Shown here: positions 6,332-42,394 of the stretch, one piece after another
How the letters are laid out: each line of letters starts with the position of its first letter
Numbering within the stretch: the first letter of the stretch is position 1
Assembly: GCA_005239675.1 (NCBI GenBank)
Contig: SBBO01000041.1
Location: 3,187 to 67,186, forward strand
Length of the DNA: 64,000 nt
Direction: 5' to 3'
Source of the DNA: Planctomycetales bacterium
GTDB lineage: Bacteria; Omnitrophota; Gorgyraeia; Zapsychrales; Zapsychraceae
Made by a program: the position numbers and the translations under genes
Notes under the pieces: model-generated
Database searches by the model: none
What the model saw: only the letters and a program-made list of their open reading frames with translations
Told to the model about the DNA's origin: nothing

Positions 6332-6375
6332 CCCCGCTGTTTTATCCCATTGTTCACAAACAGCGGGGTTTTATT
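6332..6375 (+). terminator. Rho-independent terminator after the giant gene
   Basis: CCCCGCTGTTT (6332-6342) pairs with AAACAGCGGGG (6358-6368), a perfect 11-bp stem followed by TTTTATT. Confidence 0.8.
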
Positions 6376-7234: not shown

Positions 7235-7268
7235 TATCCATCGCTAGTCCGCGGTGGATATTTTTTTT
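7235..7268 (+). terminator. Rho-independent terminator after the hydrolase gene
   Basis: TATCCATCGC (7235-7244) pairs with GCGGTGGATA (7251-7260), a 10-bp stem with one G-U pair and a 6-nt loop, followed by T8 (7261-7268). Confidence 0.8.
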
Positions 7269-7345
7269 AGATAAAAAGAGATGCAATTCACTGCGAAGAG
7301 TTTTATAATAATAATTATAGCTTAAGCAGATACTATTAAAAATGT

Positions 7346-7370
7346 TATCCATCGCTAGTCGCGATGGATA
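7346..7370 (+). promoter_or_regulatory. Perfect 10-bp-stem palindrome abutting the Shine-Dalgarno sequence of the next gene; near-copy of the 7235 hairpin but without a U-tract
   Basis: TATCCATCGC tagtc GCGATGGATA is followed directly by AGGAGG (7371-7376) and ATG 7382. GTTATCCATCGCTAGTC is identical at 7233-7249 and 7344-7360. Confidence 0.6.
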
Positions 7371-7381
7371 AGGAGGCTATC

Positions 7382-8260
7382 ATGTTAAGATATGTATTGA
7401 TATTTGTTGCAGTATTATTTATTGCGCCTCTTGCCTGCGGGGAAGAGTCGCAAGACAATGTGGTCATTAAGATACGCGCGATCAATCCCTTGGAGGAAAA
7501 AGCCAGCATCACTATCCGTTACTCGCTTCCCATCGGATTAACATCAGAGGATATTCTGGCCAAATACATCAAGCGCGGCAATAAGCCTACCAAACGTCAG
7601 AATTTTAAAATTCGTCTCGATAAAGAAAAGAAGACTTATTTTGTCGATCAACCCATGACGCTTGCCCCGAAGGAAGTGGTGGTTTTAGAAATAGAGGTCA
7701 AGGACGTATGGGCTATCCCAGCGCAGAAGCTTGATGACCTTCAAGCGCAAACAGAAAATTTACTTAAAACTCCCATCGAGAGGGAATCGACCTCAGCGGA
7801 TTTCATGAATGATGGGTCAGCGCCAGATCCCATCGTTATAAAATTAAAAGAAGAAATATTAAGACAGTTAGAAAAGATTTCAGCAACGCAGGAGGCTAAT
7901 ACCATCGCCAAGGCGGGCGTTACGGCACATATCGATGCGTATCGCAAGAATGCCGAGACACTCAAACAGGTCCAGATGGATATCGCGATGCTGGAGAATA
8001 TATTAGGTGAAAAGGAAACGCTCAAGAAAGAGGAGCTGCTTGAGGATGCCCCGTTGTCGGAGCCGCCTAGCCTTCCAAAGATCCCTGTACAGTCAGAAGA
8101 ACAAGCGCAGCCCCCTCTAGAGGTAGGTCAAGATCAGCCTGTGCCATCTGCATCCATTGAGGGCGAGAATCGCGCGGTGCAACCCGCCGCTACTATCGAG
8201 CCGTTTTCTGTAAAACCAAGCATCGCAGATAAATTGAGAAGTTGGTTTAGGCGCAGATAA
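7382..8260 (+). CDS. Secreted protein: signal peptide, one copy of an unassigned beta-rich plus helical periplasmic module, Pro/Glu/Gln-rich tail
   Basis: AGGAGG lies 5 nt upstream of ATG 7382. The N-terminus MLRYVLIFVAVLFIAPLACG is signal-peptide-like. The module is paralogous to two modules in the next gene (LAPKE..V..[IV]E[IV].D[VI]W.I and HI.AY..N.ETLK). Confidence 0.7.
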   Translation: MLRYVLIFVAVLFIAPLACGEESQDNVVIKIRAINPLEEKASITIRYSLPIGLTSEDILAKYIKRGNKPTKRQNFKIRLDKEKKTYFVDQPMTLAPKEVVVLEIEVKDVWAIPAQKLDDLQAQTENLLKTPIERESTSADFMNDGSAPDPIVIKLKEEILRQLEKISATQEANTIAKAGVTAHIDAYRKNAETLKQVQMDIAMLENILGEKETLKKEELLEDAPLSEPPSLPKIPVQSEEQAQPPLEVGQDQPVPSASIEGENRAVQPAATIEPFSVKPSIADKLRSWFRRR

Positions 8261-8326
8261 CAATCCTACATAGAAGGATAACCGTTTTCTGAAGCTTATG
8301 GAAATCAGTCGTTGGAAGGCAAGTAG

Positions 8327-10246
8327 ATGAATAATGAGTCTCCACGCATTCCCGCGCATTTCCATAAAATTCAATTTGTCTTAGCCGGGATAATTTTATT
8401 GTTCGTAACACCGCTTCATGCCAGTGTCAAGTTGAAAGTCTCCGCTTCTAATCCTTCACCGTTCCAGGAGCAGGTTGTCCCCGTTAAGTCTTATCTTCCC
8501 AAAGGTATCGGGCCGCAGGATATCATCAACGCCGGGGGCCTTACGATCGGTTACGACATAAGGAAGGGGCAGTATTATGTGTACAAAGAGGTTGTCTTGG
8601 CGCCTAAGGAAATGGCGGTCTATCAGGTGGAAATTAACGACATCTGGCTTATTAGCGAAGCAGATTTAGAGAAGCAGCGTGCCTATATTAATAAGCTGAC
8701 AGATCGTTTGAAGAATTCACAATACGCTAAAAGCGTCCAGAAGCTCATCGGAGAGATTGATGAGAGCATAACAATCATTATTAACCACCAGAATGAGAAT
8801 CTGATCGAGAAGGTATCTGCTGTTGATCACATCGCTGCCTATGAGTTGAACACGGAAACGCTCAAAAAGATTAAAGAAGACATTGACATCATAGAGAGCA
8901 TGGTTATGACACTTTCGAAGACAGGCGCGGTGGTCGGCGTTTCGCAGGACCAGGCGGCGCAAGCCTGTCTTGCGCAGGAGGCGATGCGATACGCGGACAT
9001 TAAAGGTATCGCGTTAGAGACACCACAGGACGTCAGGTTCACTATCGACGTCCAGAATTCATCGGATGTTGATACTCAGAATGTCCCTCTGCGGTATTAT
9101 CTGGCCCAAGAGGTTGGGGCCAATGATATCCTTGATTCTGCTGGCTTGAACGTAGGGTTTGATTTTGAAAAAGCGGTGCATTATCTTTTTCAAGACAGCA
9201 TCCTCTTGGGACCTGGCGAAAAAAAGATCTTCGATATTACTTTGCGCAACAAATGGGTCATCGATAAACTTTATTTGCTTACGCTTAAAGTAAATAGCGA
9301 TAATGTGGCCCTTGCCTTAGGCAGTCGCGCTGGTTTTGAAAAGTTTCGTCAGAGAAATGATGAAATCCAGTCTCAGCTAGATCAATTGCTGAAGGCAAAG
9401 AGCTTCACTGAACTGACTGAAGAGCATATCCGTACTTTTCGCAATAATCATCAGCAATTGAAAAATATTGAGCAAGAAATTGCTAAATTAGAGAATATGG
9501 TGATCACCTCCAATGGCGCAGGCGTTGTCACGGCCCAAGCGAGAGAGAGGTTGTGTGAAGAAAAGCGGGACCAGAAGATTATCGCGGCCGCAAAGGGTCC
9601 TGAGATCATTAAAGAATTTAAGATGGCCGCTGGAACAATCTTCAAGGGAAAATCCCTTAAGACGACCACCACCTGGGAGCTGATCATCGGTATTATCATT
9701 TTCTTAGGGTTCTTGAGTTCGGCGTTCTATTATATGCAAATCAGAGAACAGAAGGTCGTTATGTTGGATCCTTTGACCGGTGCTTTTTCGAGGGCGTATA
9801 TATTGGAACGATTCCGGGAAGAGCTCAGGATTTCCCAGAATACTGGCACGAAGTGTTCGCTTTTGGTGATGGATATTGATAAGTTCAAGTCTATTAACGA
9901 CACTTATGGGCATGCGGTGGGCGATACAATCCTTAAGGAATTTGTTATCACTATCCGTAAAGGCCTGCGCGCAACTGACCTTGTCGGCAGGTACGGCGGG
10001 GACGAATTTTTAATCATTTTGCCAACCAGCAATAAAGAGCGGGCTCATAAGATCGGTGAAGGTATCGCCAAGATTGTCCAAAAGAGTGTCATCCAAATTG
10101 AGAAACAAACATTTAAGATCACGACCAGTATTGGGACAGCGACCTATCCTGATGACAGCAAGGTCCCCGAGGACGTATTTTTGAAGGCGGATGGCGCCAT
10201 GTACCAGACTAAACGCCGGGGCGGCAATGGAGTGTCAACGGCATAA
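8327..10246 (+). CDS. Membrane diguanylate cyclase: two periplasmic modules, one TM segment, GGDEF domain
   Basis: N-terminal hydrophobic segment, TM WELIIGIIIFLGFLSSAFYYM, and a C-terminal GGDEF domain with an intact GGDEF (GRYGGDEFLIILP). An RxxD I-site (RATD) lies five residues upstream of it. Confidence 0.85.
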   Translation: MNNESPRIPAHFHKIQFVLAGIILLFVTPLHASVKLKVSASNPSPFQEQVVPVKSYLPKGIGPQDIINAGGLTIGYDIRKGQYYVYKEVVLAPKEMAVYQVEINDIWLISEADLEKQRAYINKLTDRLKNSQYAKSVQKLIGEIDESITIIINHQNENLIEKVSAVDHIAAYELNTETLKKIKEDIDIIESMVMTLSKTGAVVGVSQDQAAQACLAQEAMRYADIKGIALETPQDVRFTIDVQNSSDVDTQNVPLRYYLAQEVGANDILDSAGLNVGFDFEKAVHYLFQDSILLGPGEKKIFDITLRNKWVIDKLYLLTLKVNSDNVALALGSRAGFEKFRQRNDEIQSQLDQLLKAKSFTELTEEHIRTFRNNHQQLKNIEQEIAKLENMVITSNGAGVVTAQARERLCEEKRDQKIIAAAKGPEIIKEFKMAAGTIFKGKSLKTTTTWELIIGIIIFLGFLSSAFYYMQIREQKVVMLDPLTGAFSRAYILERFREELRISQNTGTKCSLLVMDIDKFKSINDTYGHAVGDTILKEFVITIRKGLRATDLVGRYGGDEFLIILPTSNKERAHKIGEGIAKIVQKSVIQIEKQTFKITTSIGTATYPDDSKVPEDVFLKADGAMYQTKRRGGNGVSTA

Positions 10247-10280
10247 CTTTGGATAAAGTGACTACCAAGACTTTGGAGAT

Positions 10281-10508
10281 ATGTTCAACGTCATTCTCCT
10301 TGACCAGACACACGTGATTTTCGATGGGATGGCCAAGAGCGTCATCCTGCCGGGTGATGGGGGGGAATTTGAGGTCTTGGATTTTCATAAACCGATTATT
10401 ACTTCTTTGAGACGCGGGGAGATCGTCATCCACGGGATGGGGTTTCCCATATCCCGGGGTATTATGCGTTTTCACAAGGATCAGATGATTGTGTTAGTGG
10501 AATTGTAA
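10281..10508 (+). CDS. atpC: F-type ATPase epsilon-like subunit, beta-sandwich domain only (75 aa)
   Basis: VILLDQTHVIFDGMAKSVILPGDGGEFEVLDFHKPIITSLRRGEIVI matches the epsilon N-terminal pattern (..F.G.v..v.lPg.eGe.g.L..H.P.it.L..G.v.i). The protein ends where the C-terminal helical hairpin would begin. Confidence 0.7.
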   Translation: MFNVILLDQTHVIFDGMAKSVILPGDGGEFEVLDFHKPIITSLRRGEIVIHGMGFPISRGIMRFHKDQMIVLVEL

Positions 10509-10538
10509 GACATAAGAAATGGATTTAAGAGAATTCTA

Positions 10539-10757
10539 ATGGAAAATTTTGTCATCTTATTTATTATATTCTTGGTTGTCATAGGCCCATTGGCCGTCAT
10601 TGCGGTCCTCGGTTTCGCTACGATACGCGCCCTGGGGCGTAATCCTTCGGCCTCTTCTAAGATCTTGCCAACGATGATTATAAATCTTGTCTACACGGCG
10701 GGGGTCGCCATTATTGGGCTTTTGGTATTATTTCACATATTCGGGACGTCTTCATAG
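10539..10757 (+). CDS. F-type ATPase c-subunit-like hairpin protein (72 aa) without an ion-binding carboxylate
   Basis: Two hydrophobic helices are joined by a polar loop, LGRNPSA (compare ARQPE of c subunits). An ungapped alignment to the bacterial c-subunit pattern, written from memory, places Ala where the essential Glu/Asp sits. The only acidic residue in the protein is E2. Confidence 0.6.
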   Translation: MENFVILFIIFLVVIGPLAVIAVLGFATIRALGRNPSASSKILPTMIINLVYTAGVAIIGLLVLFHIFGTSS

Positions 10758-10774
10758 ATGTGAAAGGAAAATCT

Positions 10775-11503
10775 ATGTCTATCATTTTATTGGTCGTTAT
10801 CATCTTGGGAGCTTTTATTGCCTTGGTATTTACTTTTCAACGAGTTATGATCTCTACGGCCTCGCAGGAGACGAAGCGCTTGCAAGACCTTAATCTGGAA
10901 AACACAAAGAAGGCCGTCGCCTTGCAGGAAAAGATTGAGGAGGCCGACAGACAATATAAAGAAAAGCTCGCCCAGGCCCAGGAGGAAATTCGGCAATTAA
11001 AGGAAAAAGCCATTCAGGAGACAGGGGCTGTGCGCGCTGACATGCTGGCCAAGGCCAAGGAAGAACGAGGACACTTGATTGACCAGGCCCTTGACGCCCG
11101 CGAGAAATTACGTGAAGAGATAGAAAGCAGTCTTTTAGAAAAAAGTCTCGAGCTGGCGCGTAGGATCATTGCTGAGATCTTGCATTCCCCGCACCAACGA
11201 TTGGTTTATGACGGCTTAATGGAGGATGTGCTGCAGGAAATGGAGGTGATGGATATTGGGATCTTAAGGGGGAGCGAGGTTCGATCATGTCATGTGCAGA
11301 CTTCTCACCCACTCGATGTCCGCCAGAAGGAACGGTTGACTAAGATTTTGTCAGAGAAGACTGGTCAAAAGATTTTCATTGAAGAGACTATCGATAAAAA
11401 GGTTATCACCGGGATTATTGTCCACATCGGTAGTTTTATGATTGATGGTAGCCTGATGACAAAATTTAAAAAAGCGGGAGAGCGTATTCGGCATGGGGGA
11501 TAA
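10775..11503 (+). CDS. F-type ATPase b-like stalk fused to a delta/OSCP-like C-terminal domain
   Basis: N-terminal TM IILLVVIILGAFIALVF, then ~110 aa of charged coiled coil. The C-terminus ITGIIVHIGSFMIDGSLMTKFKKAGERI resembles the delta C-terminal motif (GG..v..Gd.viDgSv...L..l). AAAGGA lies 6 nt upstream of ATG 10775; a GTG at 10760 is an alternative start. Confidence 0.6.
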   Translation: MSIILLVVIILGAFIALVFTFQRVMISTASQETKRLQDLNLENTKKAVALQEKIEEADRQYKEKLAQAQEEIRQLKEKAIQETGAVRADMLAKAKEERGHLIDQALDAREKLREEIESSLLEKSLELARRIIAEILHSPHQRLVYDGLMEDVLQEMEVMDIGILRGSEVRSCHVQTSHPLDVRQKERLTKILSEKTGQKIFIEETIDKKVITGIIVHIGSFMIDGSLMTKFKKAGERIRHGG

Positions 11504-11539
11504 GATCTGAATTCAACATTGATTTCTTAGATTGAATAT

Positions 11540-13023
11540 ATGCCAACCATCCATATTCAAGAAGTCGGTCGGGTCAAGGAAACTAAAAAAAGCATCGCCA
11601 AGATCACGGGGTTGACCCAATGCATGATCGGTCAGCTCATGCGTTTGAGCGATCATGCCCGAGGAATCGTTGTTGGATTCTCACGGGGTGAGGCGGTGGT
11701 CTTTCTCTTGGGCAGAATTGAAGAAGTGCGCATCGGGGATTTGGCCTATAGCCTTATGGAGCCGTTTACTATTCCGGTGGGGGAAGGGTTTTTGGGCCGG
11801 GTTGTCAATGCCCTGGCCGAGCCGATCGATGGGAAAGGATTCATTGGTGAGGTGGGGCATGGAGAATATCCTGTTTTTCGCAAGGCCCCGGGTGTTCTGC
11901 AGCGCGTTCCGATCACCAGGACCTTTGAAACGGGAGTTTTCATCGTTGATGCCACGATTCCCATCGGGAAGGGGCAGCGGGAACTAATTATTGGCGACCG
12001 GATGACGGGAAAGACCAGCATCTGCATGGATGCCCTGTTGAACCAGAAAGGCAAGGGGGTGGTGTGCATTTACTGCTGTGTGGGACGCACCTATACCTCA
12101 TTATTAAAAGCTATTGAGACCTTTAAAGAGACAGGTGCCTTGGGATATACGATCGTTGTCGCTGCGCATGCAGCTAGTCCCAGCGGTGAGCAATATCTGG
12201 TTCCGTATACCGCCTGCGCCCTGGGGGAATATTTTATGGATCACGGCCGCGACGTTTTTGTCGTATTTGACGATCTGACCAAACATGCCTGGGTCTATCG
12301 ACAGCTGTCCTTGCTATTAGAACGTCCGCCCGGGCGCGACGCGTATCCTGGAGATATTTTCTATCTGCATTCCCAGTTGATGGAGCGCGCCGGACAATAC
12401 AGTCCGGAGTTTGGTGGCGGCTCAATGACTTTCTTTCCCATTGTGGACACATTGCATGGTGACGTGACTGGTTATATCCCCTCCAATCTTATTTCTATGA
12501 CCGATGGGCAGATCTATATGAATACGTCGTTATTTAATAGCGGTTTTAGGCCGGCTATCGACTTGGGGCTTTCAGTATCTAGGATCGGCAATAAGGTCCA
12601 ATCACCGGTGATGCGTGAATTGACCGCCATGCTACGCCTGGAATATATGCGTTATAATGAACTGCTCAAGATCGCCCGGTTTAGAACGAATGTCTCTGGC
12701 CAGACAGATCAACGATTGCGTGAGGGTGAGGTCCTGACACAGTTGTTCCTGCAGATCAATGGCGAGCCGCACCCTGTCGCCAGGCAGATAATTTTTCTTT
12801 ATGCATTACGTCGCAAGATTTTACTCACCATGCCCGCAACCGAGATTGATTATTTCAAAAAGAACATTTATGATTTTGCTCAGAGAAAATATCCTGATGT
12901 GATAGACGAGCTAGTCGGGAAGATGGAATGGACGCCGCAATTGCGTCGTCGACTGGACGAGTGTTTCTTTGAGTTCTTTATGGAAAGAGGAGTGGTCATT
13001 AAAAGCCTGGAGTCGTCGCGTTA

Positions 13024-13024
<1 letters not shown>
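11540..13024 (+). CDS. atpA: F1 ATPase alpha-like subunit
   Basis: GDRMTGKTSI (P-loop), DDLTKHAWVYRQLSLLLERPPGRDAYPGDIFYLHSQLMERAG, GGGSMTFFPIVDT..GDVTGYIPSNLISMTDGQIY and LSVSRIG (Arg finger position). Confidence 0.9.
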
Positions 13025-15320
<2,296 letters not shown>

Positions 15321-15382
15321 ATGATCAAATCTTGATTCTTTAGGATGTCCCAATAAAAAAGCTTGAAAATGGAGTTAAGGGC

Positions 15383-17080
15383 ATGGCGTTACGCATAGGG
15401 GATATTTTGATCGAAAAAGGACTGATCACGCGGGATCAGTTGGAGAGGGCCGTACAGGAACATCAAAAGACCAAAGAGTTCCTTGGTCAGACCTTCATTC
15501 GCATGGGGTTTGTTACTGAAGAAAAACTTCTTAGAGTCCTGGCTGAGCAGCAGGGCATCGCTTTTCTTAGTTTAAGAGATGTCAAGTTTGACGATGCCGT
15601 CATTAAGAAAATACCGGTAAAATTTTCTTGGCATTATAAGATCATGCCGATTCGATGGCATGATAACGTCTTGACCGTTGCGACATCGAATCCTTTCGAC
15701 AAGTGGTTCATCGATGATTTAGAAACAAATTTGGGTTACCGGGTGGAGATGGTATTGGCATTATCTTCGGATATTATGAAGACCATCCAGAAATATTACG
15801 GTGTCGGTGCTGACACCATTGAACGCATTCTCGCCGAAACCCCCCACGAGGAGAAGGCCGCGGAGGTGGGGGTCAAGGAAAAAGTCGAGGATCTGGAAAA
15901 GGTCTCTGATGCCGCCTCGGTCGTTAAATTGGTTAACCAGATCCTTCAGCAGGCCATCCGTGACCGAGCGACCGACATCCACTTCGAGCATTTCCGCGGC
16001 AATCTGGCCCTTCGTTATCGTATTGATGGGATTTTGTATGATGCACAGGTCTCTGAGAATATGCGGTATCTTTATTCGGCCATTATCTCGCGCATTAAGG
16101 TCATGGCGAATATGGATATTGTGGAGCGCCGCGTTCCCCAGGACGGCCGGGCTAAAGTCAAAATAGGCGATAAAGAATATGAACTGCGCGTTTCGATTCT
16201 ACCCACTTTACACGGTGAGAATATCGCCATTCGCATCCTGCCGACCTTGATGCTTTTTAACATGAGTGATCTTGGGATGCACGATAAAGAATTGCAGGTC
16301 CTGCAGCGCGTCCTGCAAAAACCACACGGTATCATATTCGTGACCGGCCCCACCGGCAGCGGCAAGACGACAACCTTGTACACGTGCCTGAGCCAGGTGA
16401 ACACCCGCGAACGCAAAATCATTACAATCGAAGATCCCGTTGAGTATGAATTAAAGGGGGTCTCGCAGATTCAGGTCAATCCCAAAATAAGCCTTACCTT
16501 TGCCAGCGTCTTAAGAAGTATCTTGCGCCATGATCCTGACATCATTATGGTGGGGGAGGTTCGAGATTTTGAGACAGCGAGTATTACTATCCAGACTGCT
16601 CTCACTGGACATCTGGTATTCTCAACGATACACACGAATAACGCCGCCAGCGGGGCAACACGCCTGATCGATATGGGTATTGATCCGTTTCTTATTACCT
16701 CATCTGTGGAGATGTTTATTGCGCAGCGACTGGTGCGTCGGATTTGCCCCGATTGCAAGGAAGAATCCAGAATCGATGGCGACAAAATTGGCCTGAAGGA
16801 TATCCCCCAAGGGATGGATATCACTAGGCCAATCTTTCGCGGCAAGGGTTGCCCTACCTGCAACCATACCGGCTATAAAGGCAGGACCGGCATTTACGAA
16901 CTTTTGGTGATGAACGAAAAAATTCGGGACTTAATTCTTCATAAAGAGTCAGCGGACAAGGTTCAGCTTAAGGCCATTGAGACAGGGATGAATCCTATGG
17001 TGCTCGATGGATGGGAAAAAGTTTTTGCTGGTATGACAACACCTGAAGAGGTGCATAGGGTAACGCAGGTGGAGGAGTAA
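15383..17080 (+). CDS. gspE: GspE/PilB/MshE-family secretion ATPase with N-terminal MshEN-like domain and C-terminal tetracysteine motif
   Basis: GPTGSGKTTT Walker A; Asp and His boxes (ITIEDPVEY, GHLVFSTIHTNNA); CPDC...CPTCNHTGYKGRTGIYE. The N-terminus is RIGDILIEKGLITRDQLERAV / LGQTFIRMGFVTEEKLLRVLAEQ. Confidence 0.9.
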   Translation: MALRIGDILIEKGLITRDQLERAVQEHQKTKEFLGQTFIRMGFVTEEKLLRVLAEQQGIAFLSLRDVKFDDAVIKKIPVKFSWHYKIMPIRWHDNVLTVATSNPFDKWFIDDLETNLGYRVEMVLALSSDIMKTIQKYYGVGADTIERILAETPHEEKAAEVGVKEKVEDLEKVSDAASVVKLVNQILQQAIRDRATDIHFEHFRGNLALRYRIDGILYDAQVSENMRYLYSAIISRIKVMANMDIVERRVPQDGRAKVKIGDKEYELRVSILPTLHGENIAIRILPTLMLFNMSDLGMHDKELQVLQRVLQKPHGIIFVTGPTGSGKTTTLYTCLSQVNTRERKIITIEDPVEYELKGVSQIQVNPKISLTFASVLRSILRHDPDIIMVGEVRDFETASITIQTALTGHLVFSTIHTNNAASGATRLIDMGIDPFLITSSVEMFIAQRLVRRICPDCKEESRIDGDKIGLKDIPQGMDITRPIFRGKGCPTCNHTGYKGRTGIYELLVMNEKIRDLILHKESADKVQLKAIETGMNPMVLDGWEKVFAGMTTPEEVHRVTQVEE

Positions 17081-17092
17081 TTTAAAGTAGAT

Positions 17093-18370
17093 ATGCCCAC
17101 TTTTGTTTATAAGGCCAAGCGTGGTCCAGATCATCAGGAGACTGGGGAAGTCGTTGCCCTCCATCAGGACGATGCGGTCATCAAATTAGAAGCCTTAGGA
17201 TTGAGTCCTGTTAGTATTGTTGAAAAAGAGACCGTCGTTGGTGGATCCAGGACTGTCCAGAAAGTGGCCGGTGCCTCCGTGGGGGGGCTAGATTCGGTCC
17301 CTCCAGGATCTGTGTCTTATAGTGGGCTGATTAAAGTAAGGACACGCGACATTGATAGTTTTACTTGGCAATTGGCGACCCTAGTTAAGGCTAGTGTCCC
17401 CATGCTGCGCTCATTGGCCTTAATCTCCCAGCAAACCGAGAGCAGGGCCCTTAAGACGGTCGTTGATGATCTGCATCATCAGATCAAAAATGGTAAGACG
17501 CTTTCTGATGGGATGCGTCGATACCCCCAGCTATTTAATAATCTCTATTTGAGTATGATCAAATCCGGTGAGCATAGCGGCGCCCTACAGGAGGTCTTGT
17601 ATCGCATCGCCCAGTATCGCGAGAAGGAGCAGGCGGTCCTGCGTAAGATCCAGGCAGCCTTGGCCTATCCGGCCGTGATGATTGTGGTTGGCATCGCGAC
17701 GGTTTTTATTATGTTGACGGTCTTTATGCCCAAGTTTATTGGTATTTTTGCTACGATGAAGAAGGCCCTGCCCGTACCGACCCGTGTCTTGATTGGGATC
17801 AGCAATTTTTTAGTACATCATTGGTTCTGGTTTCTCATGGCCTTTCTCTTTGTCATGATCATTTTTGGTCGGGTCCGATCTTCGAGTCACAAGAAATTTA
17901 TCTTTGATTTGATTAAACTGCATATTCCATTCATCAACACGTTCGTGCGTAATGCCGAGATCGCCAAATTCGCTAGGACTTTAGGGTTGCTGTTGAAAAG
18001 CGGTCTGTCAGTCCACGATAGTCTTTTGTTGGCGACCGACACCCTTGACAACGACGCCCTACGTACTCAGCTAAGAGGCGCTGGTCAGGACATCGTTCAG
18101 CGGGGGGCAACACTCTCTTCAAGTCTTACTAAACTCAAGGCATTCCCTCCTTTTGCCGTCAACATGATTACGATTGGTGAAGAATCTGGAAGGCTCGATG
18201 AGTCGCTAGGCAGTATTGCCGGTGTCTACGAGAGAGAAGTAGAACAAGCGATTGGCGTTTTGACATCATTATTGGAGCCTATGCTTATTCTGGTGATTGG
18301 GGGGGTTATCGGATTTATCGTGTTTGCCTTGCTGTTACCGATATTTGACATAGGGACCATGGCGAGATAA
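17093..18370 (+). CDS. gspF: GspF/PilC-family inner-membrane platform protein
   Basis: Size is 425 aa, with a duplicated T2SSF-type architecture (two cytoplasmic helical domains, each followed by TM segments). It lies immediately after gspE. Confidence 0.85.
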   Translation: MPTFVYKAKRGPDHQETGEVVALHQDDAVIKLEALGLSPVSIVEKETVVGGSRTVQKVAGASVGGLDSVPPGSVSYSGLIKVRTRDIDSFTWQLATLVKASVPMLRSLALISQQTESRALKTVVDDLHHQIKNGKTLSDGMRRYPQLFNNLYLSMIKSGEHSGALQEVLYRIAQYREKEQAVLRKIQAALAYPAVMIVVGIATVFIMLTVFMPKFIGIFATMKKALPVPTRVLIGISNFLVHHWFWFLMAFLFVMIIFGRVRSSSHKKFIFDLIKLHIPFINTFVRNAEIAKFARTLGLLLKSGLSVHDSLLLATDTLDNDALRTQLRGAGQDIVQRGATLSSSLTKLKAFPPFAVNMITIGEESGRLDESLGSIAGVYEREVEQAIGVLTSLLEPMLILVIGGVIGFIVFALLLPIFDIGTMAR

Positions 18371-18408
18371 AAATTGATTATCTAAAAGGGTGATAAAGGA
18401 GATATACC

Positions 18409-18819
18409 ATGAAGAAAGGATTTACGCTCATTGAGCTCATGATCGTTGTTATTATCATTGCTGCGTTAGCGGCGATGGTCGTCCCGCGACTGGGGTCGCG
18501 TTCTGAACAGGCCAAGGTGGCAGTTGCAGAGGCAGACATCAATGCGAACATTAGTCTGGCCCTTAAGCTCTACAAGTTGGATAACGGCCGCTATCCAACG
18601 ACCTCTCAAGGGCTCAAGGCCCTTCTTGAAAGGCCCACCGCGAGCCCAATGCCAACGAACTGGAACGGCCCGTATCTTGAGAAAGAACCCTTGGATCCAT
18701 GGAACAATGCCTATCAATATAAGAACCCAGGCGCCCAGAATAAGGACAATTATGATCTGTATTCGATGGGAACCGATGGCACTGAAGGAACAGAAGATGA
18801 TATTAAGAACTGGCAATAG
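18409..18819 (+). CDS. gspG: Major pseudopilin, GspG type
   Basis: Prepilin signal MKKG|FTLIELMIVV with E+5, and the GspG hallmark DPWNNAYQYKNPG...YDLYSMGTDGTEGTEDDIKNW. AAGGAG lies upstream of the ATG. Confidence 0.9.
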   Translation: MKKGFTLIELMIVVIIIAALAAMVVPRLGSRSEQAKVAVAEADINANISLALKLYKLDNGRYPTTSQGLKALLERPTASPMPTNWNGPYLEKEPLDPWNNAYQYKNPGAQNKDNYDLYSMGTDGTEGTEDDIKNWQ

Positions 18820-18837
18820 CACAAGACATCACAGTAA

Positions 18838-18893
18838 GGTCTTCGGTCTTGGGTCTTGGGTCTACAGTCTAAGATCTTCGGTCTATGGTCTGA
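18838..18893 (+). repeat. Eight tandem heptanucleotide repeats (consensus GGTCTTN)
   Basis: GGTCTTC GGTCTTG GGTCTTG GGTCTAC AGTCTAA GATCTTC GGTCTAT GGTCTGA, with an exact 7-nt period starting at 18838. Confidence 0.9.
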
Positions 18894-19267
18894 ATAAAGG
18901 GGTCACCTTTTTTGAGATTCTTCTTACTGTCGTCGTTCTTTCTGTGGGCATGGTGGGCGTATTGCGGGTATATGCCGCATCTTTAAGTATCTTGGAAGTT
19001 GTGGGCGATACTATAAATAGCCTAGTATTGACCCAGGAGAAGATGGCAGATAGCGAACAGACGGCCCTAGAGGAGGGTGGGATCTCAATAGGAACTTCGA
19101 GCGGCCAGTTTAACAAAAGATTGGGGGATTATATCTGGGAGTCTAACGCTACGGCTTCAGCCATCGCAGGGCTTGATGCATTGACATTCACCGTGTATCG
19201 TGCGGGTAGTTCTAGAAGATTTCAGTTGGCGACTTATATCGAAGATAAGAATGATGAATTACCGTAA
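18890..19267 (+). CDS. Minor pseudopilin (GspI-like); start codon unresolved
   Basis: (L/M)NKG|VTFFEILLTVVVLSVGMVGVL is a class-III signal-like N-terminus with E+5. No in-frame ATG/GTG/TTG lies between the gspG stop and this motif. CTG 18890 sits where the Met of a 4-residue leader is expected. Confidence 0.5.
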   Translation: MNKGVTFFEILLTVVVLSVGMVGVLRVYAASLSILEVVGDTINSLVLTQEKMADSEQTALEEGGISIGTSSGQFNKRLGDYIWESNATASAIAGLDALTFTVYRAGSSRRFQLATYIEDKNDELP

Positions 19268-19898
19268 GGGTTTTACACTTATCGAACTTGCGATTGCCGC
19301 GTCCATTTTAAGTATGGTTGCGTTGGCTATTTTGTCGGTTTTTGGGGCAGGTCTGCGCACCTTTGACCGTGTGGCAGTGTTTGGTGGTTCCCAATCAGGA
19401 TTTTTATTATTTTTGCAAAATTTTGAAACGGATATACGCAATGCCTTCGAGCTCCCCGGAGTTCCCTTTACGGGTAACACTCAAAAGATGAGCTTTGCGG
19501 GGATTACCTCTGAGCTCAATGAAGATAATGAGGTTTCTGTCGCATTAGTCAAAAAGTTATATTATTTTGACAATGCCCGCAATACTTTGTTTAATAAAGA
19601 AGAAGGGTACCCTCAGGCGGTATTTCCTTTTGATGTCCCGTCAGAACAGGTTGGGTCGCTCATGGACGTTCGGTTCCAGTATTATGCGTATACGAAGACC
19701 ATAGAAGAGGGAAAAGAAAATATTCAATATGGATGGCAGGACGCGTGGAGCGAAGAAGGCAGTTTGCCTAGAGGGGTCAAGATAGTCTTGACATTTAATA
19801 ATGGCGATCAGGATGTCATCTGGGAGCGGACGGTATTTATCCCGACTGGTGGGGATGTTCCTTTCTTACCAGCAACAGAGGAAGAACAGGAAGGTTAG
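19251..19898 (+). CDS. Minor pseudopilin (GspJ/H-like)
   Basis: MMNYRKG|FTLIELAIAASILSMVALAIL prepilin motif; 215 aa. It overlaps the previous gene by 17 nt. Confidence 0.75.
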   Translation: MMNYRKGFTLIELAIAASILSMVALAILSVFGAGLRTFDRVAVFGGSQSGFLLFLQNFETDIRNAFELPGVPFTGNTQKMSFAGITSELNEDNEVSVALVKKLYYFDNARNTLFNKEEGYPQAVFPFDVPSEQVGSLMDVRFQYYAYTKTIEEGKENIQYGWQDAWSEEGSLPRGVKIVLTFNNGDQDVIWERTVFIPTGGDVPFLPATEEEQEG

Positions 19899-19899
19899 G

Positions 19900-20919
19900 G
19901 TGAGGTCTAGATGTCGCCGGGCGAGTGTTTTGATTGTGGCCCTTTGGTGCCTTTTCTTTTTAAGTGGACTGGCGGTTGCCATCTATGTGCGCATTGCGCC
20001 GCAGGTTAGGTTGGTAGGGCATTTGCGGGACAAGGTCAAAGGCTATTATGCGGCTAAGGCTGGGGTCAGGCAAGCTATGTTCATGATGAACGCAGATGTG
20101 ACGCAAGATTATGATGCCTTAAACGACATCTGGGTCGATAATGAAGAGACGCTCAAGGATATTGAGATAAGTAAAGAGGCCTCTGTTAGTGTGAAATATG
20201 AGTGGACAGATGAGCAGGGAGTACTGCAGACCCGTTATGGTCTTATCGATGAGGAAAGCAAAATTAATATCAACACGGCGTCTCTGGATACCTTTGAGCA
20301 CCTTCTAGAATCCATTGGTCAGGCGACCTCCTCACAGGTGACAGATATTGCCAATGCCATTTTAGATTGGGTGGACGAAGATAGTGACCTGCGCCCGAAC
20401 AGCGCCGAAGAAGGTTATTATGCCGGCCTCAGCCCTAGTTACCCGTGTGCTAATGCCAAGTTCGCCGTGCCTGAGGAATTGCTTTTGGTTAAAGGCATGA
20501 CGTTGGAAATTTTTAATAAGATAAGGCCTTTTATTACCGTTTACGGCTCAGGCAGGGTCAATATCAACACGGCCGGTGAGCATGTCTTGGAAGCGATAGG
20601 TCTTGAACGTGCGCTCATAGATAAAGTGTTCCGGTTTCGCCGGGGCAACGATGGTCAGGAAGGAACCGCTGATGACAATGTATTTCAGGCCATGACATCG
20701 GTCATCGCGTCATTGAACAGCGCCGTTGGATTATCTGAACCAGAGACGCAACAGTTAAACCTATTGATCGCAGCTGAAGTGCTCAGCGTGGGTTCCAATT
20801 ATTTCTACGGTGAGTCATGGGTGCAGTTGCTCTCCAGTGCAGGGGATTCCCACATGCCTCTTAAGGTTGTCTTTATCTTTGACCGAGGAAAGAATATCCG
20901 GTTCTGGAGGGAAGGGTAA
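19900..20919 (+). CDS. gspK: GspK-like minor pseudopilin
   Basis: GTG 19900 follows the preceding stop directly. The hydrophobic N-terminus is ASVLIVALWCLFFLSGLAVAIYV. Two helix-hairpin-helix-like motifs (KININTASLDTFEHLL, RVNINTAGEHVLEAIG) are typical of GspK. Confidence 0.7.
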   Translation: MRSRCRRASVLIVALWCLFFLSGLAVAIYVRIAPQVRLVGHLRDKVKGYYAAKAGVRQAMFMMNADVTQDYDALNDIWVDNEETLKDIEISKEASVSVKYEWTDEQGVLQTRYGLIDEESKININTASLDTFEHLLESIGQATSSQVTDIANAILDWVDEDSDLRPNSAEEGYYAGLSPSYPCANAKFAVPEELLLVKGMTLEIFNKIRPFITVYGSGRVNINTAGEHVLEAIGLERALIDKVFRFRRGNDGQEGTADDNVFQAMTSVIASLNSAVGLSEPETQQLNLLIAAEVLSVGSNYFYGESWVQLLSSAGDSHMPLKVVFIFDRGKNIRFWREG

Positions 20920-20990
20920 TAGTTTTATTCTCGTAGAAGAAATTTTAAAAAGTCTTTGCATGGACATAGAATTGAGATGATGATAAGGGC

Positions 20991-22469
20991 ATGACGAAAC
21001 TCATGATACCACAAGTTGCGCGCAAATCTGTCGTGGTCGTGGAAATCGGCAATGACTGGCTTAAGGTTGTGGGGGGAACCCGAGTCGGCCAGGAAGGAAT
21101 GATCACCAAGGTCAGTTTTCAGAGACTTGTTGACATTAAGGAGCCTGTTGCCGCGGCCCTGGTTAAGGTTTTTAAAGATCTCAAGCTCAATAAAGAGAAG
21201 GTCATCGCCTGCATGCCTCGACATATGGTGACCGTCAGATTCCTGGAATTCCCTGCGACGAACCCAAAGGACATCCAGGATATGGTCTCGTTGCAGATAG
21301 GTAAGCAAACCCCCTATTCTCGCGATGAAATCATTTTTACTTACAAGACGATTGCCACTACCAACACAGGGTACACCAAGGTTATGCTGGTCATTGCCCG
21401 GCGCAATTTGGTCAATGCACGCATTGCGGTCTTGCAAGAGGCCGGTATTGAGATTGAAAAGGTGGCATTAAGTTCGGAGGGGCTGGCCCATTGGTTTTGC
21501 CTGGCTCAGGATAGCGTCCAGGCGGATAACAAGGCAGTCATTTATGTAGACATTGATTCCGGTTATTCTGATTTTACAGTGATTCGCGGTGGAAAATTAG
21601 TTTATACAAGAAATTTCTTGATCGGGGCTAATCACTTGATGGGGCAAGAGATGAGCTGGCAAGATAAGTTCTGTGAGGAGACGATACATTCCATGGGGCT
21701 GTATCTTAACGAAGATCGAGACGTGAAGATCGCGCGGTTATTCTTGGGTGGGACCGCTGCGCACATTCCTTTATCAATTGTTCGGTTGGCCCAAAAGGTC
21801 GAGGTGCCGATTGCCGTGATCGAACCGCTGCATGCTATTCCCCTCCAGAAGGCCTCGCGATTGTTCGAAAAAAATGAGGGGCAACTCATCTCACCGTGCC
21901 CTTTAATAGGGATTGCGCTGGCAGGATCGGACCTTGAATTGGATTTGACCTCTAGCGAACTGCACATTAAGAAAAATATGGAGGAGAGACGTAAACAGAT
22001 CACGACAACGGGGGTCCTTATGCTTTCCATCCTCATGGCGTTGTCAACCCTATTTTTTATCAGCTATTTTTATAAAAACCATTATATGAGCGAATTGAAG
22101 AAAACCATCGCCACGATGGAAAAAGATGCCCTTGAGGTAGAAAGGATGCGCACGGCGATCAATCTGGTTAAGGGCCGGCTGGACGCGCGCAAGAGTTCGA
22201 TTAATATTCTGCAGGAGATCACTCGGTTGACACCGAAAGAAATTTATTTCACCGACATTAAGATTGAGGAAGAAAAACAGACGATCCTTCAGGGGAGGGC
22301 TGCTGCCATGTCGAATGTCTTTGAATTTGTCACGACCCTGGAGGGTTCCCCTTATTTTGAGAGCGTACAAACGACCTACACAACCACAAAAAAGGAAAAA
22401 GATACCGAGCATGCCCGATTCGAGATTATATGCATCCACGAGAAACACGATGATGACTTCGGGTCATAA
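20991..22469 (+). CDS. PilM-PilN fusion (GspL-like assembly protein)
   Basis: The N-terminal ~330 aa are actin-like and PilM-like (VVVEIGNDWLKVV, YVDIDSGYSDFTVIRGGKLVYTRNFLIGANHL). A TM segment (GVLMLSILMALSTLFFISYFY) follows, then a PilN-like periplasmic domain. Confidence 0.75.
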   Translation: MTKLMIPQVARKSVVVVEIGNDWLKVVGGTRVGQEGMITKVSFQRLVDIKEPVAAALVKVFKDLKLNKEKVIACMPRHMVTVRFLEFPATNPKDIQDMVSLQIGKQTPYSRDEIIFTYKTIATTNTGYTKVMLVIARRNLVNARIAVLQEAGIEIEKVALSSEGLAHWFCLAQDSVQADNKAVIYVDIDSGYSDFTVIRGGKLVYTRNFLIGANHLMGQEMSWQDKFCEETIHSMGLYLNEDRDVKIARLFLGGTAAHIPLSIVRLAQKVEVPIAVIEPLHAIPLQKASRLFEKNEGQLISPCPLIGIALAGSDLELDLTSSELHIKKNMEERRKQITTTGVLMLSILMALSTLFFISYFYKNHYMSELKKTIATMEKDALEVERMRTAINLVKGRLDARKSSINILQEITRLTPKEIYFTDIKIEEEKQTILQGRAAAMSNVFEFVTTLEGSPYFESVQTTYTTTKKEKDTEHARFEIICIHEKHDDDFGS

Positions 22470-22490
22470 TGTATCTTGTAAAAAAATGAT

Positions 22491-23033
22491 ATGTTTTGGG
22501 AAAAACTTTCTAAAAAAGAAACAATAGGATTGACTATTGCCTTTGTGATCCTGGCCGTTGCCTTCCTTGACCGGCTCATGATTGGTCCTATCCGGGCGCG
22601 ATTTAGGGCCATCAACCAGCAGATCAAGATTAGCGAAAAGCAGCTAGGTAGTGATATACGCAATCTCAGGCAAAAGAATATCATTAGTGAAGAGTATGAG
22701 AAATTCTTTCCGTTTATCCACCGCAGCGGTTCTGGTTCCGATGAAGAGGAGGTGGCCAAGATCTTGGGTGAAATTGAATCGCTGGCCAGGAAATCTTCAG
22801 TTTATTTAGTAGATATGAAGCCGCGCAGTAAGCCGCAGGCCATGGAGCTGCACAAGCAGTATACGGTGGAGATCGAGGTGGAAGGGCAAATGGAACCCCT
22901 GGTTAACTTTATTTATCAGCTAAACACCTCATCCCAGTTGCTGCGCATCGAGATGTTGCGCATGAATCCTACGAAGAATGACACCAAGACCCTAACTGCC
23001 TCCATGCTGATTACAAGAGTGCTATGGATTTAA
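22491..23033 (+). CDS. PilO/GspM-like assembly protein
   Basis: Size is 180 aa, with an N-terminal TM (IGLTIAFVILAVAFL), a coiled segment and a C-terminal ferredoxin-like pattern (YTVEIEVEGQMEPLVNFIYQLNTSSQLLRIEMLRM). Confidence 0.6.
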   Translation: MFWEKLSKKETIGLTIAFVILAVAFLDRLMIGPIRARFRAINQQIKISEKQLGSDIRNLRQKNIISEEYEKFFPFIHRSGSGSDEEEVAKILGEIESLARKSSVYLVDMKPRSKPQAMELHKQYTVEIEVEGQMEPLVNFIYQLNTSSQLLRIEMLRMNPTKNDTKTLTASMLITRVLWI

Positions 23034-23143
23034 CAAAAATTTAACAAAAATTTTCAATAAGTAATTGTGTGCCTATTCATAGTATGTTATAGTAAGAATT
23101 AATTATATCGTCAGCAATATAAGCTATTGAAATAATAGAAGCC

Positions 23144-24496
23144 ATGACCCCGCCAATTCTTCCTAAGGTCGATTTCTTAAATAAACTTAAGGGAAAAATA
23201 CCTTTCGATAAAATACAGTCAAAGATCATGACATTGGGTGCATTTAGGCAGAGCGTATTTATCTTGATCCCACTATTGGTTGTTAGTCTTGGACTTACGG
23301 GCCTGACCATTCTCGATAAACGGAAAATAGCGCGACAAAAGATTTCTGTTGAAGGCGACCTTAAGACCGCTCGCGCTCGGGAGAAAGAGAGTCTTGCCGA
23401 ACTCAATAGTTTAAAGGGTCAGCTTAATTTAGCCCAGCAAGAGAAGTTACAATTTGAGCAGACTATAGCTGAATTGCAGAAAAGTATTGAAGAAAGGCTT
23501 ACCGAGATCTCCGCCATAACTGTCCAAGGGGAGCGATCAAGGCAGGCGCTCGAAGAGATTGCTAAAGAGCGCGCTGAATTTATCAAGGAACGTGATGCAC
23601 TCGCCAAAGAACGCGACGAGCTGATCATAAAACTCAAGGAAAAACCTGAAGTGGTCTATGAGCAAAGGGTAGGGGTTGAGGGGACGGGTGGAGCGGGGGA
23701 CATTGCCCAGCCTGCCAGGATCGATCAGGCCTCCTTGGAGGCGGAGATTGAAAGACTTAAAGGGGATATCTTGCAGCGTTCCGTAACGATCGATCAATTT
23801 AAAAAGGAGAACAACGCGCTACGTACTGATCTAGAAGCGCTGCGTCGCGACAAAGAAAAGATAGAAGATGATATCGCTGCGAAAGAAGGGATGATTAATA
23901 ATCTTACCCTTGAACTCAGTAAGGTTAAAGACGACCATAGATTCGTGACTCAGAAAGCAGACAAGTTAACTCAGCAGAACATGGCCTTGCATGAACAGAT
24001 CAAGAGATCTTTTGATGCAAAGGCAGCCCTGGAGCGCTCGATTACCCGCACGATGCGTCAGAAAGACGCCATGGAGAATGAATTGAAGGACGCTCGGGCC
24101 ATCGTGCAGAAAAAAGTGGACGAAATATGGAAAATCAAACACAACCTGGACAATTCGTTTCAGCCCATTGAATCCGTCAGGCAGTCTGCCCCAGGCGAGG
24201 TAGAGCTCTCCCCTATTGTTGTCAATCACCATGGTCCGGTTTCAGCTTCCCGAATCGAGACTGACGCAACCGATTTTGGATTTAAGGCCAAGATCCTGAG
24301 TATCAATGAAGGTAATAATTTTGTCGTCCTAGACACGGGTGAGAAGCACGGCCTGCGCGTGGGAGATACGCTAGGTGTTTACCGTGATTCCGAATATATT
24401 GCGCGTCTTCAAATCATCCAGACTAGGCCTAATATCGCCGCGGCTGACCTGAAAGACCAGTGGTCGAAAGTTCAGGTGGGCGATATAGTCCGATGA
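23144..24496 (+). CDS. Membrane-anchored long coiled-coil protein with a small C-terminal beta-barrel-like domain
   Basis: TM VFILIPLLVVSLGLTGLTIL, then ~300 aa of heptad-rich charged sequence. The C-terminus is KAKILSINEGNNFVVLDTGEKHGLRVGDTLGVYRDSEYIARLQIIQTRPNIAAADL...VQVGDIV. Confidence 0.6.
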   Translation: MTPPILPKVDFLNKLKGKIPFDKIQSKIMTLGAFRQSVFILIPLLVVSLGLTGLTILDKRKIARQKISVEGDLKTARAREKESLAELNSLKGQLNLAQQEKLQFEQTIAELQKSIEERLTEISAITVQGERSRQALEEIAKERAEFIKERDALAKERDELIIKLKEKPEVVYEQRVGVEGTGGAGDIAQPARIDQASLEAEIERLKGDILQRSVTIDQFKKENNALRTDLEALRRDKEKIEDDIAAKEGMINNLTLELSKVKDDHRFVTQKADKLTQQNMALHEQIKRSFDAKAALERSITRTMRQKDAMENELKDARAIVQKKVDEIWKIKHNLDNSFQPIESVRQSAPGEVELSPIVVNHHGPVSASRIETDATDFGFKAKILSINEGNNFVVLDTGEKHGLRVGDTLGVYRDSEYIARLQIIQTRPNIAAADLKDQWSKVQVGDIVR

Positions 24497-42390: not shown

Positions 42391-42394
42391 TGCG

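Follow-up and report, generated by a model that had tools for sequence, protein, structure and literature searches.

An F-type ATPase gene set inside a type II secretion-like filament array of Omnitrophota, and its possible role as an accessory motor

Introduction

Why do the genes of an F-type ATPase lie within a gene array for a secretion machine? This question is raised by a stretch of 64,000 nucleotides (hereafter the window), which spans positions 3,187 to 67,186 of the forward strand of contig SBBO01000041.1 (GenBank assembly GCA_005239675.1), from an organism deposited as Planctomycetales bacterium and placed by GTDB in the Omnitrophota (Gorgyraeia; Zapsychrales; Zapsychraceae). Between positions 7382 and 24496 of the window, on the + strand, a diguanylate cyclase gene, the near-complete gene set of an F-type ATPase and the genes of a type II secretion system (T2SS)-like or type IV filament machine form a close-packed array. 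An earlier reading of the letters (the original prediction) proposed that the ATPase operon is embedded in the secretion array, that it lacks atpB (subunit a) and has a non-conducting c-ring, that the giant LamG-domain protein encoded upstream is a plausible partner, and that no described T2SS or type IV pilus (T4P) system has such a component.

The last of these points fails, since loci with a 'symbiotic' F-type ATPase and a type-4a pilus (T4aP) have been described in every class of Omnitrophota (Seymour et al. 2023, Nat Microbiol 8:727, PMC10066038). In that study, 56 of 111 Velamenicoccia species, including V. archaeovorus LiM, carried a non-respiratory F-type ATPase homolog beside a type-4a pilus cluster, and the two were at most 10 kb apart in 57 of the 66 contigs carrying both; the filament clusters were classed as T4aP by TXSScan, and alpha was assigned to Mycoplasma type 2/3 (PMC10066038). 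Thus, the linkage of ATPase and filament genes is already known and is not new. We found no mention of subunit a, c-ring, stalk or cyclic di-GMP (c-di-GMP) in the paper and its supplements, no later literature following up these loci, and nothing usable on ATPase expression in V. archaeovorus.

What is added here is the exact subunit make-up of the ATPase, the regulatory and contact domains that it lacks, a candidate c-di-GMP link, the T2SS-like, GspG-type character of the filament machine, a co-conserved LamG C-terminal module, and the loss of the c-ring glutamate as an exception in the family. On balance, we favor the reading that the locus is an example of the 'symbiotic' F-type ATPase / type IV filament supercluster known from Omnitrophota, and that its ATPase is an ATP-hydrolysing accessory motor, not the ATP synthase of the cell.

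Results

Conservation of the junction between ATPase and secretion genes

In the window, the gene for F1 beta ends at 15320 and that for a GspE/PilB-type secretion ATPase begins at 15383, leaving a spacer of 62 nt (15321–15382) in which, as had been claimed, no terminator-like site was found. Related loci were gathered with a gamma-alignment scan of one genome per GTDB species, which gave 40 loci, and with a scan of metagenomes, which gave 80 more; collapsed at ≥95% nucleotide identity, these form 103 non-redundant clusters, of which 61 have at least 1.5 kb of sequence after beta and were usable for the junction. In 58 of the 61, beta is followed within 600 nt by the start of GspE. Among the first 31 usable species-level loci, it is the very next gene in 29, with a median gap of 31 nt, and 10 of these junctions are no longer than 3 nt or overlap.

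The junction is kept in relatives down to ~31–36% gamma identity. It is also kept throughout at least four arrangements of the ATPase block, the orders seen including epsilon–c–b-delta–alpha–gamma–beta, alpha–alpha2–epsilon–c–b-delta–gamma–beta, orders that begin with epsilon–b-delta–c, and blocks with extra copies of c. Three distant beta homologs whose neighborhoods were inspected have the same order from epsilon to PilO as the window. The adjacency is thus not unique to one genome, and the proposed embedding is borne out across about 100 non-redundant relatives. We conclude that the ATPase–GspE linkage is real and old, and that the ATPase genes are embedded in the T2SS-like / type IV filament array as more than mere neighbors. 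Because the genes 3' of PilO vary among relatives, the conserved core ends at 23033, the last base of a PilO/GspM-like gene. The beta homologs that are 63–82% identical to window beta come, where the source is named, almost all from Candidatus Omnitrophota/Omnitrophica. Several loci (L033, L036, L037, L031/L034/L038, L030 and L035) are from metagenome-assembled genomes (MAGs) labelled Lentisphaeria, Planctomycetota, Verrucomicrobiota, Neomarinimicrobiota or Paceibacterota by their submitters.

It could be argued that the gene order was simply inherited and means nothing for function, the ATPase and secretion operons being unrelated ones that happened to remain neighbors in this phylum. Nearly the whole 64-kb window is co-directional, which would suit such an explanation, as would three relatives (L031, L034 and L082) in which the ATPase block has no adjacent GspE. 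However, it would then have to be explained why 58 of 61 junctions are kept over such divergence, why in 10 loci the junction overlaps or measures 0–3 nt, why it persists while ATPase genes are rearranged and the flanks beyond PilO differ, and why a GspE paralog is inserted in the ATPase block of one relative. We regard mere inheritance of gene order as very improbable.

Four of these loci deserve a brief description. In L028, the inserted gene (4148–5830) is a second GspE-like gene between c and b-delta, whose product is 41% identical to window GspE and has N-terminal MshEN-like motifs. In L031, a GspE gene lies 4.5 kb downstream of the ATPase block. L082 has large fn3/FG-GAP and FGE-sulfatase-domain proteins before the ATPase and opposite-strand two-component regulator genes after it; like L031 and L034, it belongs to a sub-lineage with an altered c subunit (see below).

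Co-orientation was rejected as evidence for an operon, being weak evidence here because almost the whole 64 kb is + strand. The + strand run extends from the start of the window to 28177, and a LacI-type gene begins 31 nt after 24496, so that the end of the array at 24496 is arbitrary. Among the open reading frames (ORFs) taken as genes, the sole – strand gene in the 64 kb encodes a 1057-aa DUF748 protein (28241–31414). Within 7382–24496, all the genes named in the original prediction are present on the + strand, and its gap sizes (34, 62 and 110 nt, the others at most 71 nt) agree with the values recomputed here and given below.

The catalytic motifs of F1 are intact, and its regulatory and contact domains are missing

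The ATPase block (all genes + strand) starts 34 nt after the cyclase gene with epsilon (10281–10508, 75 aa; Pfam ATP-synt_DE_N, 42.3 bits, cutoff 27). After 30 nt comes a c-subunit homolog (10539–10757, 72 aa), 2 nt later a b-delta fusion stalk protein (10760–11503, 247 aa), and 36 nt later alpha (11540–13024), which overlaps gamma (13024–13908) by 1 nt; beta (13917–15320) follows gamma after 8 nt. Both catalytic-hexamer subunits score above NCBIfam equivalog cutoffs, alpha with the model of ordinary atpA (TIGR00962, 509.9 bits, cutoff 484.45) and beta with that of ordinary atpD (TIGR01039, 554.7 bits, cutoff 462.85). Alpha has the P-loop GDRMTGKT and the arginine finger SVSRIG. Beta shares 47% identity with an E. 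coli AtpD sequence, and its Walker A, Walker B, catalytic glutamate and arginine residues are all in place. In the relatives, the beta P-loop and GERxREG are found in every full-length protein but one, and the arginine finger in every primary alpha but one. Judged by these motifs, F1 is predicted to be catalytically intact.

Many relatives have a second alpha paralog beside alpha (L002 3999–5558, L013 5288–6700, L015 4368–5837, and metagenome loci such as L092 and L105), in which the P-loop is kept and the SVSR[IV]G arginine-finger motif is absent. This suggests a heterogeneous alpha/alpha2/beta hexamer in those organisms.

The central stalk of an F-type ATPase, gamma plus epsilon, is present. 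Gamma is a true but divergent member of its family (Pfam ATP-synt, 77.6 bits, cutoff 39.9), the best PDB gamma match reaching only E 1.8e-7. Epsilon consists of the N-terminal beta-sandwich only (Pfam match over residues 3–74), without the C-terminal regulatory helices, and its homologs are likewise short (75–94 aa). On the side of the peripheral stalk, the b-delta protein has an N-terminal transmembrane (TM) helix, a coiled coil and a delta C-terminal domain, and it matches Pfam OSCP over profile positions 102–168 only. A profile of its family finds mycobacterial b-delta as the best match, over b (5–164) and the delta C-terminal domain (362–440) only. The delta N-terminal domain is absent, and its partner, the beginning of alpha, is likewise missing: alpha lacks the first ~19 canonical residues, PDB alignments beginning at query residue 4 against chain residue 23, and its ORF cannot be extended farther upstream. 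In canonical alpha, these residues form the delta-binding helix. Hence the contact of a full-length delta with the alpha N-terminus, which belongs to an F1Fo enzyme, was not found.

The c subunit and the search for subunit a

The window c protein, which has a GRNP loop, scores 17.5 bits against Pfam ATP-synt_C, below the cutoff of 24. A profile of its family, however, matches PDB F-type c subunits at E 7.6e-9 with the column of the ion-binding glutamate aligned, and this points to a true c-subunit homolog. In the window, that column holds Ala54, so the ion-binding carboxylate is missing. In the family, 63 of 69 homologous genes for c still encode the glutamate; besides the window, it is lost in L085, in the L031/L034/L082 sub-lineage (glycine in place of glutamate) and in a duplicated copy in L007. 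The proposed non-conducting c-ring therefore fits this genome and does not fit the family at large. The glutamate does seem dispensable in some lineages, because it is lost there while the rest of the ATPase stays intact.

An alignment of relatives indicates that the TM helix of b keeps a Q/N-x-x-x-F...LRK pattern, which we take to be that of ordinary b subunits. In the window, the polar residue of this helix is lost together with the c glutamate. L038 has also lost the polar residue, and no c gene was detected there, epsilon being followed directly by b-delta (4846–5877). The pattern in the window and L038 may hint at a contact between b and c; L031 and L034 do not fit it.

TM-count screens of all ORFs and phmmer searches with an E. 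coli AtpB sequence covered the 64-kb window and, in the 103 non-redundant loci, 10 kb on either side; in these neighborhoods they revealed neither a subunit a gene nor a polytopic candidate for one. The proposed absence of atpB thus held in every neighborhood examined. The only polytopic ORF of the window that came into question as subunit a is assigned by Pfam to the UbiA-family prenyltransferases. The TM helices of window GspF, PilN and PilO and the b alignment were also inspected by eye for a substitute of the stator arginine, and no mid-membrane arginine was seen in them.

Does the organism have another ATP synthase? According to the 2023 source data (PMC10066038), the ~95%-complete MAG DG-1-4-65 has the KEGG orthology (KO) entries of alpha and beta together with V-type subunits, and no K02108 (subunit a). 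In many Omnitrophota, a V-type ATPase is reported as the energy-conserving enzyme, an 'incomplete F1F0' is reported in complete genomes, and in the respiratory order Zapsychrales a full F-type module is found in 37 of 39 species. The closer relatives of the window cluster include MAGs with names matching Zapsychrales. The window itself carries menaquinone genes at 36502–40800, which encode a MenB-like protein, a UbiA-family prenyltransferase that is likely MenA, MenC and a MenE-like protein. Genes for quinone synthesis point to a respiratory way of life, which would probably call for a separate ATP synthase encoded outside this cluster, elsewhere in the genome. Taking these genes, the relatives and the literature together, we think that the organism probably has another ATP synthase.

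The main rival of our reading is that the ATPase translocates ions, as an F-type ATPase or ATP synthase with its subunit a gene at another site, and that it lies beside the secretion genes for co-regulation or for a local supply of ATP or of an ion gradient, with no mechanical coupling. The equivalog scores of alpha and beta and the 47% identity of beta to AtpD are what such an enzyme would show, as are the conserved TM motif of b, the glutamate of 63 of 69 c genes in alignment with the canonical ion-binding one, and the presence of gamma, epsilon, b and the delta C-terminal domain. Yet subunit a is absent from the 103 neighborhoods and from the window, and K02108 is missing from the ~95%-complete MAG with the KO entries of alpha and beta; the glutamate has been lost in at least three lineages with F1 intact; the epsilon C-terminal domain, the delta N-terminal domain and the alpha N-helix are missing; and V-type or separate respiratory F-type enzymes have been reported from relatives. 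Moreover, this explanation gives no account of why the beta–GspE junction survives the shuffling of ATPase genes. We consider it unlikely.

The filament machine

The secretion genes (all + strand) begin with GspE (15383–17080; Pfam T2SSE, 448.8 bits). After 12 nt follows a GspF/PilC platform protein (17093–18370; Pfam T2SSF twice, 197.5 bits), and 38 nt later a major pseudopilin of the GspG type (18409–18819; NCBIfam TIGR01710, 163.6 bits, cutoff 88.85; Pfam T2SSG and N_methyl). The gene of minor pseudopilin 1 (18797–19267), with the prepilin-like N-terminus KGVTFFEILL and a family kept in 23 loci, overlaps that of GspG by 23 nt and is itself overlapped by 17 nt by the gene of minor pseudopilin 2 (19251–19898; Pfam N_methyl), also of a conserved family. 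A GspK-like minor pseudopilin (19900–20919; Pfam T2SSK_1st, 74.9 bits) comes 1 nt later; for these three genes the start codons were refined before the gaps were recomputed. A PilM–PilN fusion, a GspL-like assembly-platform protein that is kept in relatives (20991–22469; Pfam PilM_2 and PilN), follows after 71 nt, and a PilO/GspM-like protein (22491–23033; Pfam PilO and T2SSM_b; weak NCBIfam GspM match) after another 21 nt.

For GspE, GspF, GspK and GspM the T2SS models are the best matches, all below their cutoffs: GspE reaches 597.6 bits (cutoff 630.25; the PilB model gives 572.7 bits, cutoff 675.65), GspF 354.7 bits (cutoff 424) and GspK (T2SS_GspK) 99.1 bits (cutoff 130). GspG is above its cutoff, and the PilM–PilN fusion and PilO fill the GspL/M role. 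Neither the secretin GspD nor GspC nor the prepilin peptidase GspO was found among the window genes scanned, and the window is also without PilP, PilQ and PilT. Among the relatives, L004 has a secretin gene upstream and L027 a gene for a likely prepilin peptidase; in the window organism the secretin, GspC and the prepilin peptidase may be encoded elsewhere in the genome. The major pilin is GspG-type and not PilA-type. We would call the filament machine T2SS-like rather than T4aP, the two being one superfamily.

A candidate c-di-GMP switch and its periplasmic modules

The N-terminus of GspE carries a tandem MshEN motif (NCBIfam NF053729, 68.9 bits, cutoff 38, residues 4–56), which is also visible in the N-termini of most relatives' GspE. 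Upstream, the membrane diguanylate cyclase (8327–10246, + strand; Pfam GGDEF, PF00990, 144.6 bits) has a signal sequence, two periplasmic modules, one TM helix and a GGDEF domain, in which the active-site motif is intact and an RxxD I-site (RATD) stands just upstream. The MshEN motif on GspE matches this cyclase, and together they suggest a concrete regulatory link through c-di-GMP.

The gene 66 nt before the cyclase (7382–8260, + strand) encodes a secreted or periplasmic protein with no Pfam match, made of one beta-sandwich plus helical module. With two further copies in the cyclase, the window has three in all (7442–8026, 8423–9016 and 9017–9586). The module, an undescribed one, comprises a beta-sandwich of ~95 aa with the pattern NP...LP...YD...YYV...KDVW and ~90 aa of helices, and has no Pfam match. 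In 34 of 42 loci, the gene immediately before the ATPase block belongs to this module family; the module is also found in P0122–P0125 and in the upstream genes of many loci, as one copy or as tandem copies, with a TM helix or a GGDEF domain at the end. A homolog search with the 292-aa protein of 7382–8260 gave 5 matches only. Its AlphaFold2 model has a mean predicted local distance difference test score (pLDDT) of 80.8, and Foldseek found no match to it in PDB at E ≤ 0.001; the modelled fold thus appears to be a generic beta-sandwich only.

The LamG protein and the question of substrates

At 64–6282 (+ strand) lies the gene of a giant LamG-domain surface protein (Pfam Laminin_G_3 in three stretches, 267.8 bits). 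Its 5' end is cut by the window, the ORF being open back to base 1, and the protein exceeds 2072 aa. The only part that is conserved near related clusters is the C-terminal stretch of ~550 residues (about 1520–2067), which has a Thr-rich stretch, an Ig-like domain and a coiled coil. A homolog of this C-terminal module lies upstream in 18 of the 28 non-redundant loci that have at least 5 kb of upstream sequence. The suggestion that the giant protein is a partner of the cluster is supported to this extent, as a recurrent neighbor relation.

It would be tempting to see in such proteins the clients of an ATPase of another kind. The flagellar FliH–FliI–FliJ and type III SctL–SctN–SctO sets consist of an F1-related homo-hexamer with a gamma-like center and a b/delta-like tether, placed at a protein-export machine. 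The window ATPase could by analogy be a soluble-face ATPase on a b/delta-like stalk, which prepares, unfolds or gates substrates such as the LamG giants at the platform, with c as a membrane anchor only. A b plus delta make-up has been proposed for FliH/YscL, and the 247-aa b-delta protein shares it; alpha and beta also match FliI/SctN models, weakly (160–208 bits only, cutoffs 380–715); giant LamG genes are co-conserved upstream; and the c glutamate is dispensable in some lineages. However, proteins secreted by a T2SS normally pass the inner membrane through Sec or Tat and take on their fold in the periplasm, so that a cytoplasmic unfoldase would have no obvious client. In addition, no other small gene of the set is as conserved as that of the c protein, in which the glutamate is mostly retained, and the enzyme is of the hetero alpha3beta3 type with a normal gamma. 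We therefore find a substrate-handling ATPase of this kind distinctly unlikely.

Flanking signals and other genes of the window

Both hairpin-plus-T-run sites that had been proposed as terminators upstream of the array were confirmed. The first, at 6332–6375 (+ strand), lies 3' of the giant gene and, as read from the sequence, has an 11-bp stem and a 15-nt loop followed by TTTTATT, the hairpin proper being 6332–6368. The second, at 7235–7268 (+ strand), is an intrinsic-terminator-like hairpin of 10 pairs (stem-loop 7235–7260) followed by T8. Between them lies the gene of an alpha/beta hydrolase of the dienelactone hydrolase family (6382–7200, + strand; Pfam DLH, 46.6 bits), for which no homolog was found in the related loci, so that it is not conserved in related clusters. 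A second copy of the 7235 hairpin sequence is present at 7345–7371 (+ strand), its 3' arm abutting the AGGAGG ribosome-binding site of the 7382 gene; the two share the exact 16-nt repeat TTATCCATCGCTAGTC at 7234 and 7345, 110 nt apart, where 0.43 would be expected by chance. This copy has no T-run and a fold z-score of –3.5, and it may be a translational or stability element.

At the other end, an AT-rich gap of 110 nt separates the PilO/GspM gene from that of a membrane-anchored coiled-coil protein of 450 aa with a small C-terminal beta domain (23144–24496, + strand), which has weak Pfam matches only (among them a weak FlgT_C match). Its homologs occupy the same downstream position in close relatives only (L007, L009 and L048).

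A gathering-threshold Rfam scan of the whole window gave no match, hence no riboswitch, and no tRNA genes were found. The region 41362–50429 carries arginine and lysine genes: a semialdehyde dehydrogenase that is likely ArgC, ArgJ, a class-III aminotransferase that is likely ArgD, ArgG, ArgH, and a pyridoxal-phosphate-dependent decarboxylase that is likely LysA.

Discussion

An accessory motor of the filament machine

How could an F-type ATPase serve a filament machine? In the reading that we favor, the membrane diguanylate cyclase would sense a periplasmic signal through its beta-sandwich modules and make c-di-GMP, which would bind the MshEN domain of GspE and switch on the assembly of a GspG-type pseudopilus or short pilus. 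The filament machine might handle large LamG-type surface proteins used in cell–cell contact. The F-type ATPase, composed of alpha3beta3, gamma, the epsilon N-domain, the b-delta stalk and a c-ring, would be made together with the filament machine, presumably from shared transcripts, and would run toward hydrolysis as an accessory motor of the filament apparatus. That it would be an accessory motor and not an ATP synthase is suggested by the lack of a subunit a gene nearby and by the loss of the epsilon inhibitory domain and of the contact between the delta N-domain and the alpha N-helix.

Several of our observations weigh against this reading. Alpha and beta score as ordinary atpA and atpD products, and most of the c family keeps its glutamate. 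The conserved TM pattern of b is what one would expect if a subunit-a-like partner were encoded somewhere in the genome. Among 40 loci plus the window that were checked, only 13 have a true GGDEF motif in the upstream gene. The co-orientation of the genes adds little in a window that is almost all + strand, and L031, L034 and L082 have an ATPase block without GspE beside it. Of the original prediction as a whole, the embedding of the ATPase genes, the missing subunit a and the LamG neighbor stand, while its novelty and a non-conducting c-ring throughout the family do not.

A stronger form of the idea is that F1 and the c-ring are a physically integrated second rotary motor. The b-delta stalk would then be anchored to the GspL/M-like cage, and rotation would act on the platform or the filament base, for example in retraction or counter-rotation, in a system without PilT. 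We think this form of the idea doubtful; if it were true, this would be an F-type rotor that drives another envelope machine mechanically rather than moving ions, the first of its kind known.

If the ATPase works with the filament machine in any manner, an F1-type motor would have been recruited independently for a second time, after the flagellar/type III FliHIJ, to export proteins or to work on surface filaments. This time a c-ring would have been retained, a point relevant to how rotary ATPases and secretion machines arose from one another. The cluster may also encode a part of the apparatus for contact or predation in the ultra-small Omnitrophota. The proposed function of such a cluster would surprise most specialists in ATP synthases or secretion, and the question can be tested, since V. 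archaeovorus LiM, a carrier, exists in enrichment culture.

Comparison with known systems

The filament half of the locus resembles canonical T2SS and, in its MshE-like ATPase, the MSHA system: it has an MshEN GspE, GspF, a GspG pseudopilin, minor pseudopilins including GspK, and GspL/M-like proteins. It differs from a canonical T2SS in that the window is without GspC, the secretin GspD and the prepilin peptidase, and in that GspE, GspF and GspK are below the equivalog cutoffs. To our knowledge, no T2SS or MSHA system carries F-type ATPase genes. The FliHIJ and SctLNO sets, in turn, are homo-hexamers without a c-ring and belong to another secretion system, whereas the window set is a hetero alpha3beta3–gamma–epsilon assembly with c and a membrane-anchored stalk.

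The N-ATPase (atpDCQRBEFAG) is also a second, accessory F-type operon, and its b subunit of ~246 aa has a delta-like C-terminus, with no separate delta. Its operon includes genes for subunit a, AtpQ/AtpR and a c of the Na+ type, and is not known to be linked to secretion genes. The N-ATPase model TIGR03321 matches the window b-delta weakly. Membership was rejected, as alpha reaches 480 bits against a cutoff of 750.5 and beta 494.3 against 752, and the window cluster has neither the extra small membrane genes nor a subunit a.

The F1-like ATPases of Mycoplasma are of type 2 (the M. mobile gliding G1-ATPase, MMOB1660/1670) and type 3 (MSC_0618/0619, linked to MIB-MIP). Their alpha/beta pairs serve something other than ATP synthesis, as is predicted for the present set, and they also resemble it in that the clusters are without subunit a and the bacteria are host-associated. 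The Omnitrophota set, unlike them, keeps c, b-delta, gamma and epsilon. Membership in either type was also rejected: alpha scores 409.8 bits (cutoff 600) with the MMOB1660 model and 299.9 (cutoff 520) with MSC_0619, and beta scores 394.2 (cutoff 850) with MMOB1670 and 390.8 (cutoff 570) with MSC_0618. In a PDB search with beta, the best match is a bacterial F1 beta (475 bits), the M. mobile G1-ATPase reaching 323 bits.

The loci of Seymour et al. (2023) are the known systems to which the window locus belongs. The closest homologs of its beta are, where the source is named, almost all from Omnitrophota/Omnitrophica, and beta lies 62 nt from GspE, where the definition of those loci allows up to 10 kb; the phylum, the co-location and, in relatives, the gene order are the same, and there is no difference in kind. 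Two distinctions can be drawn: the type 2/3 label given to alpha is not borne out by the model scores obtained here, and the loss of the c-ring glutamate sets the window genome apart from most loci of this type. Beyond the 2023 description, the present analysis adds that no subunit a lies nearby, that epsilon, delta and the alpha N-terminus are shortened, that a cyclase is paired with MshEN, that the pilin is of the GspG type, that alpha and beta have canonical F1 scores, and that a LamG C-terminal module is co-conserved upstream.

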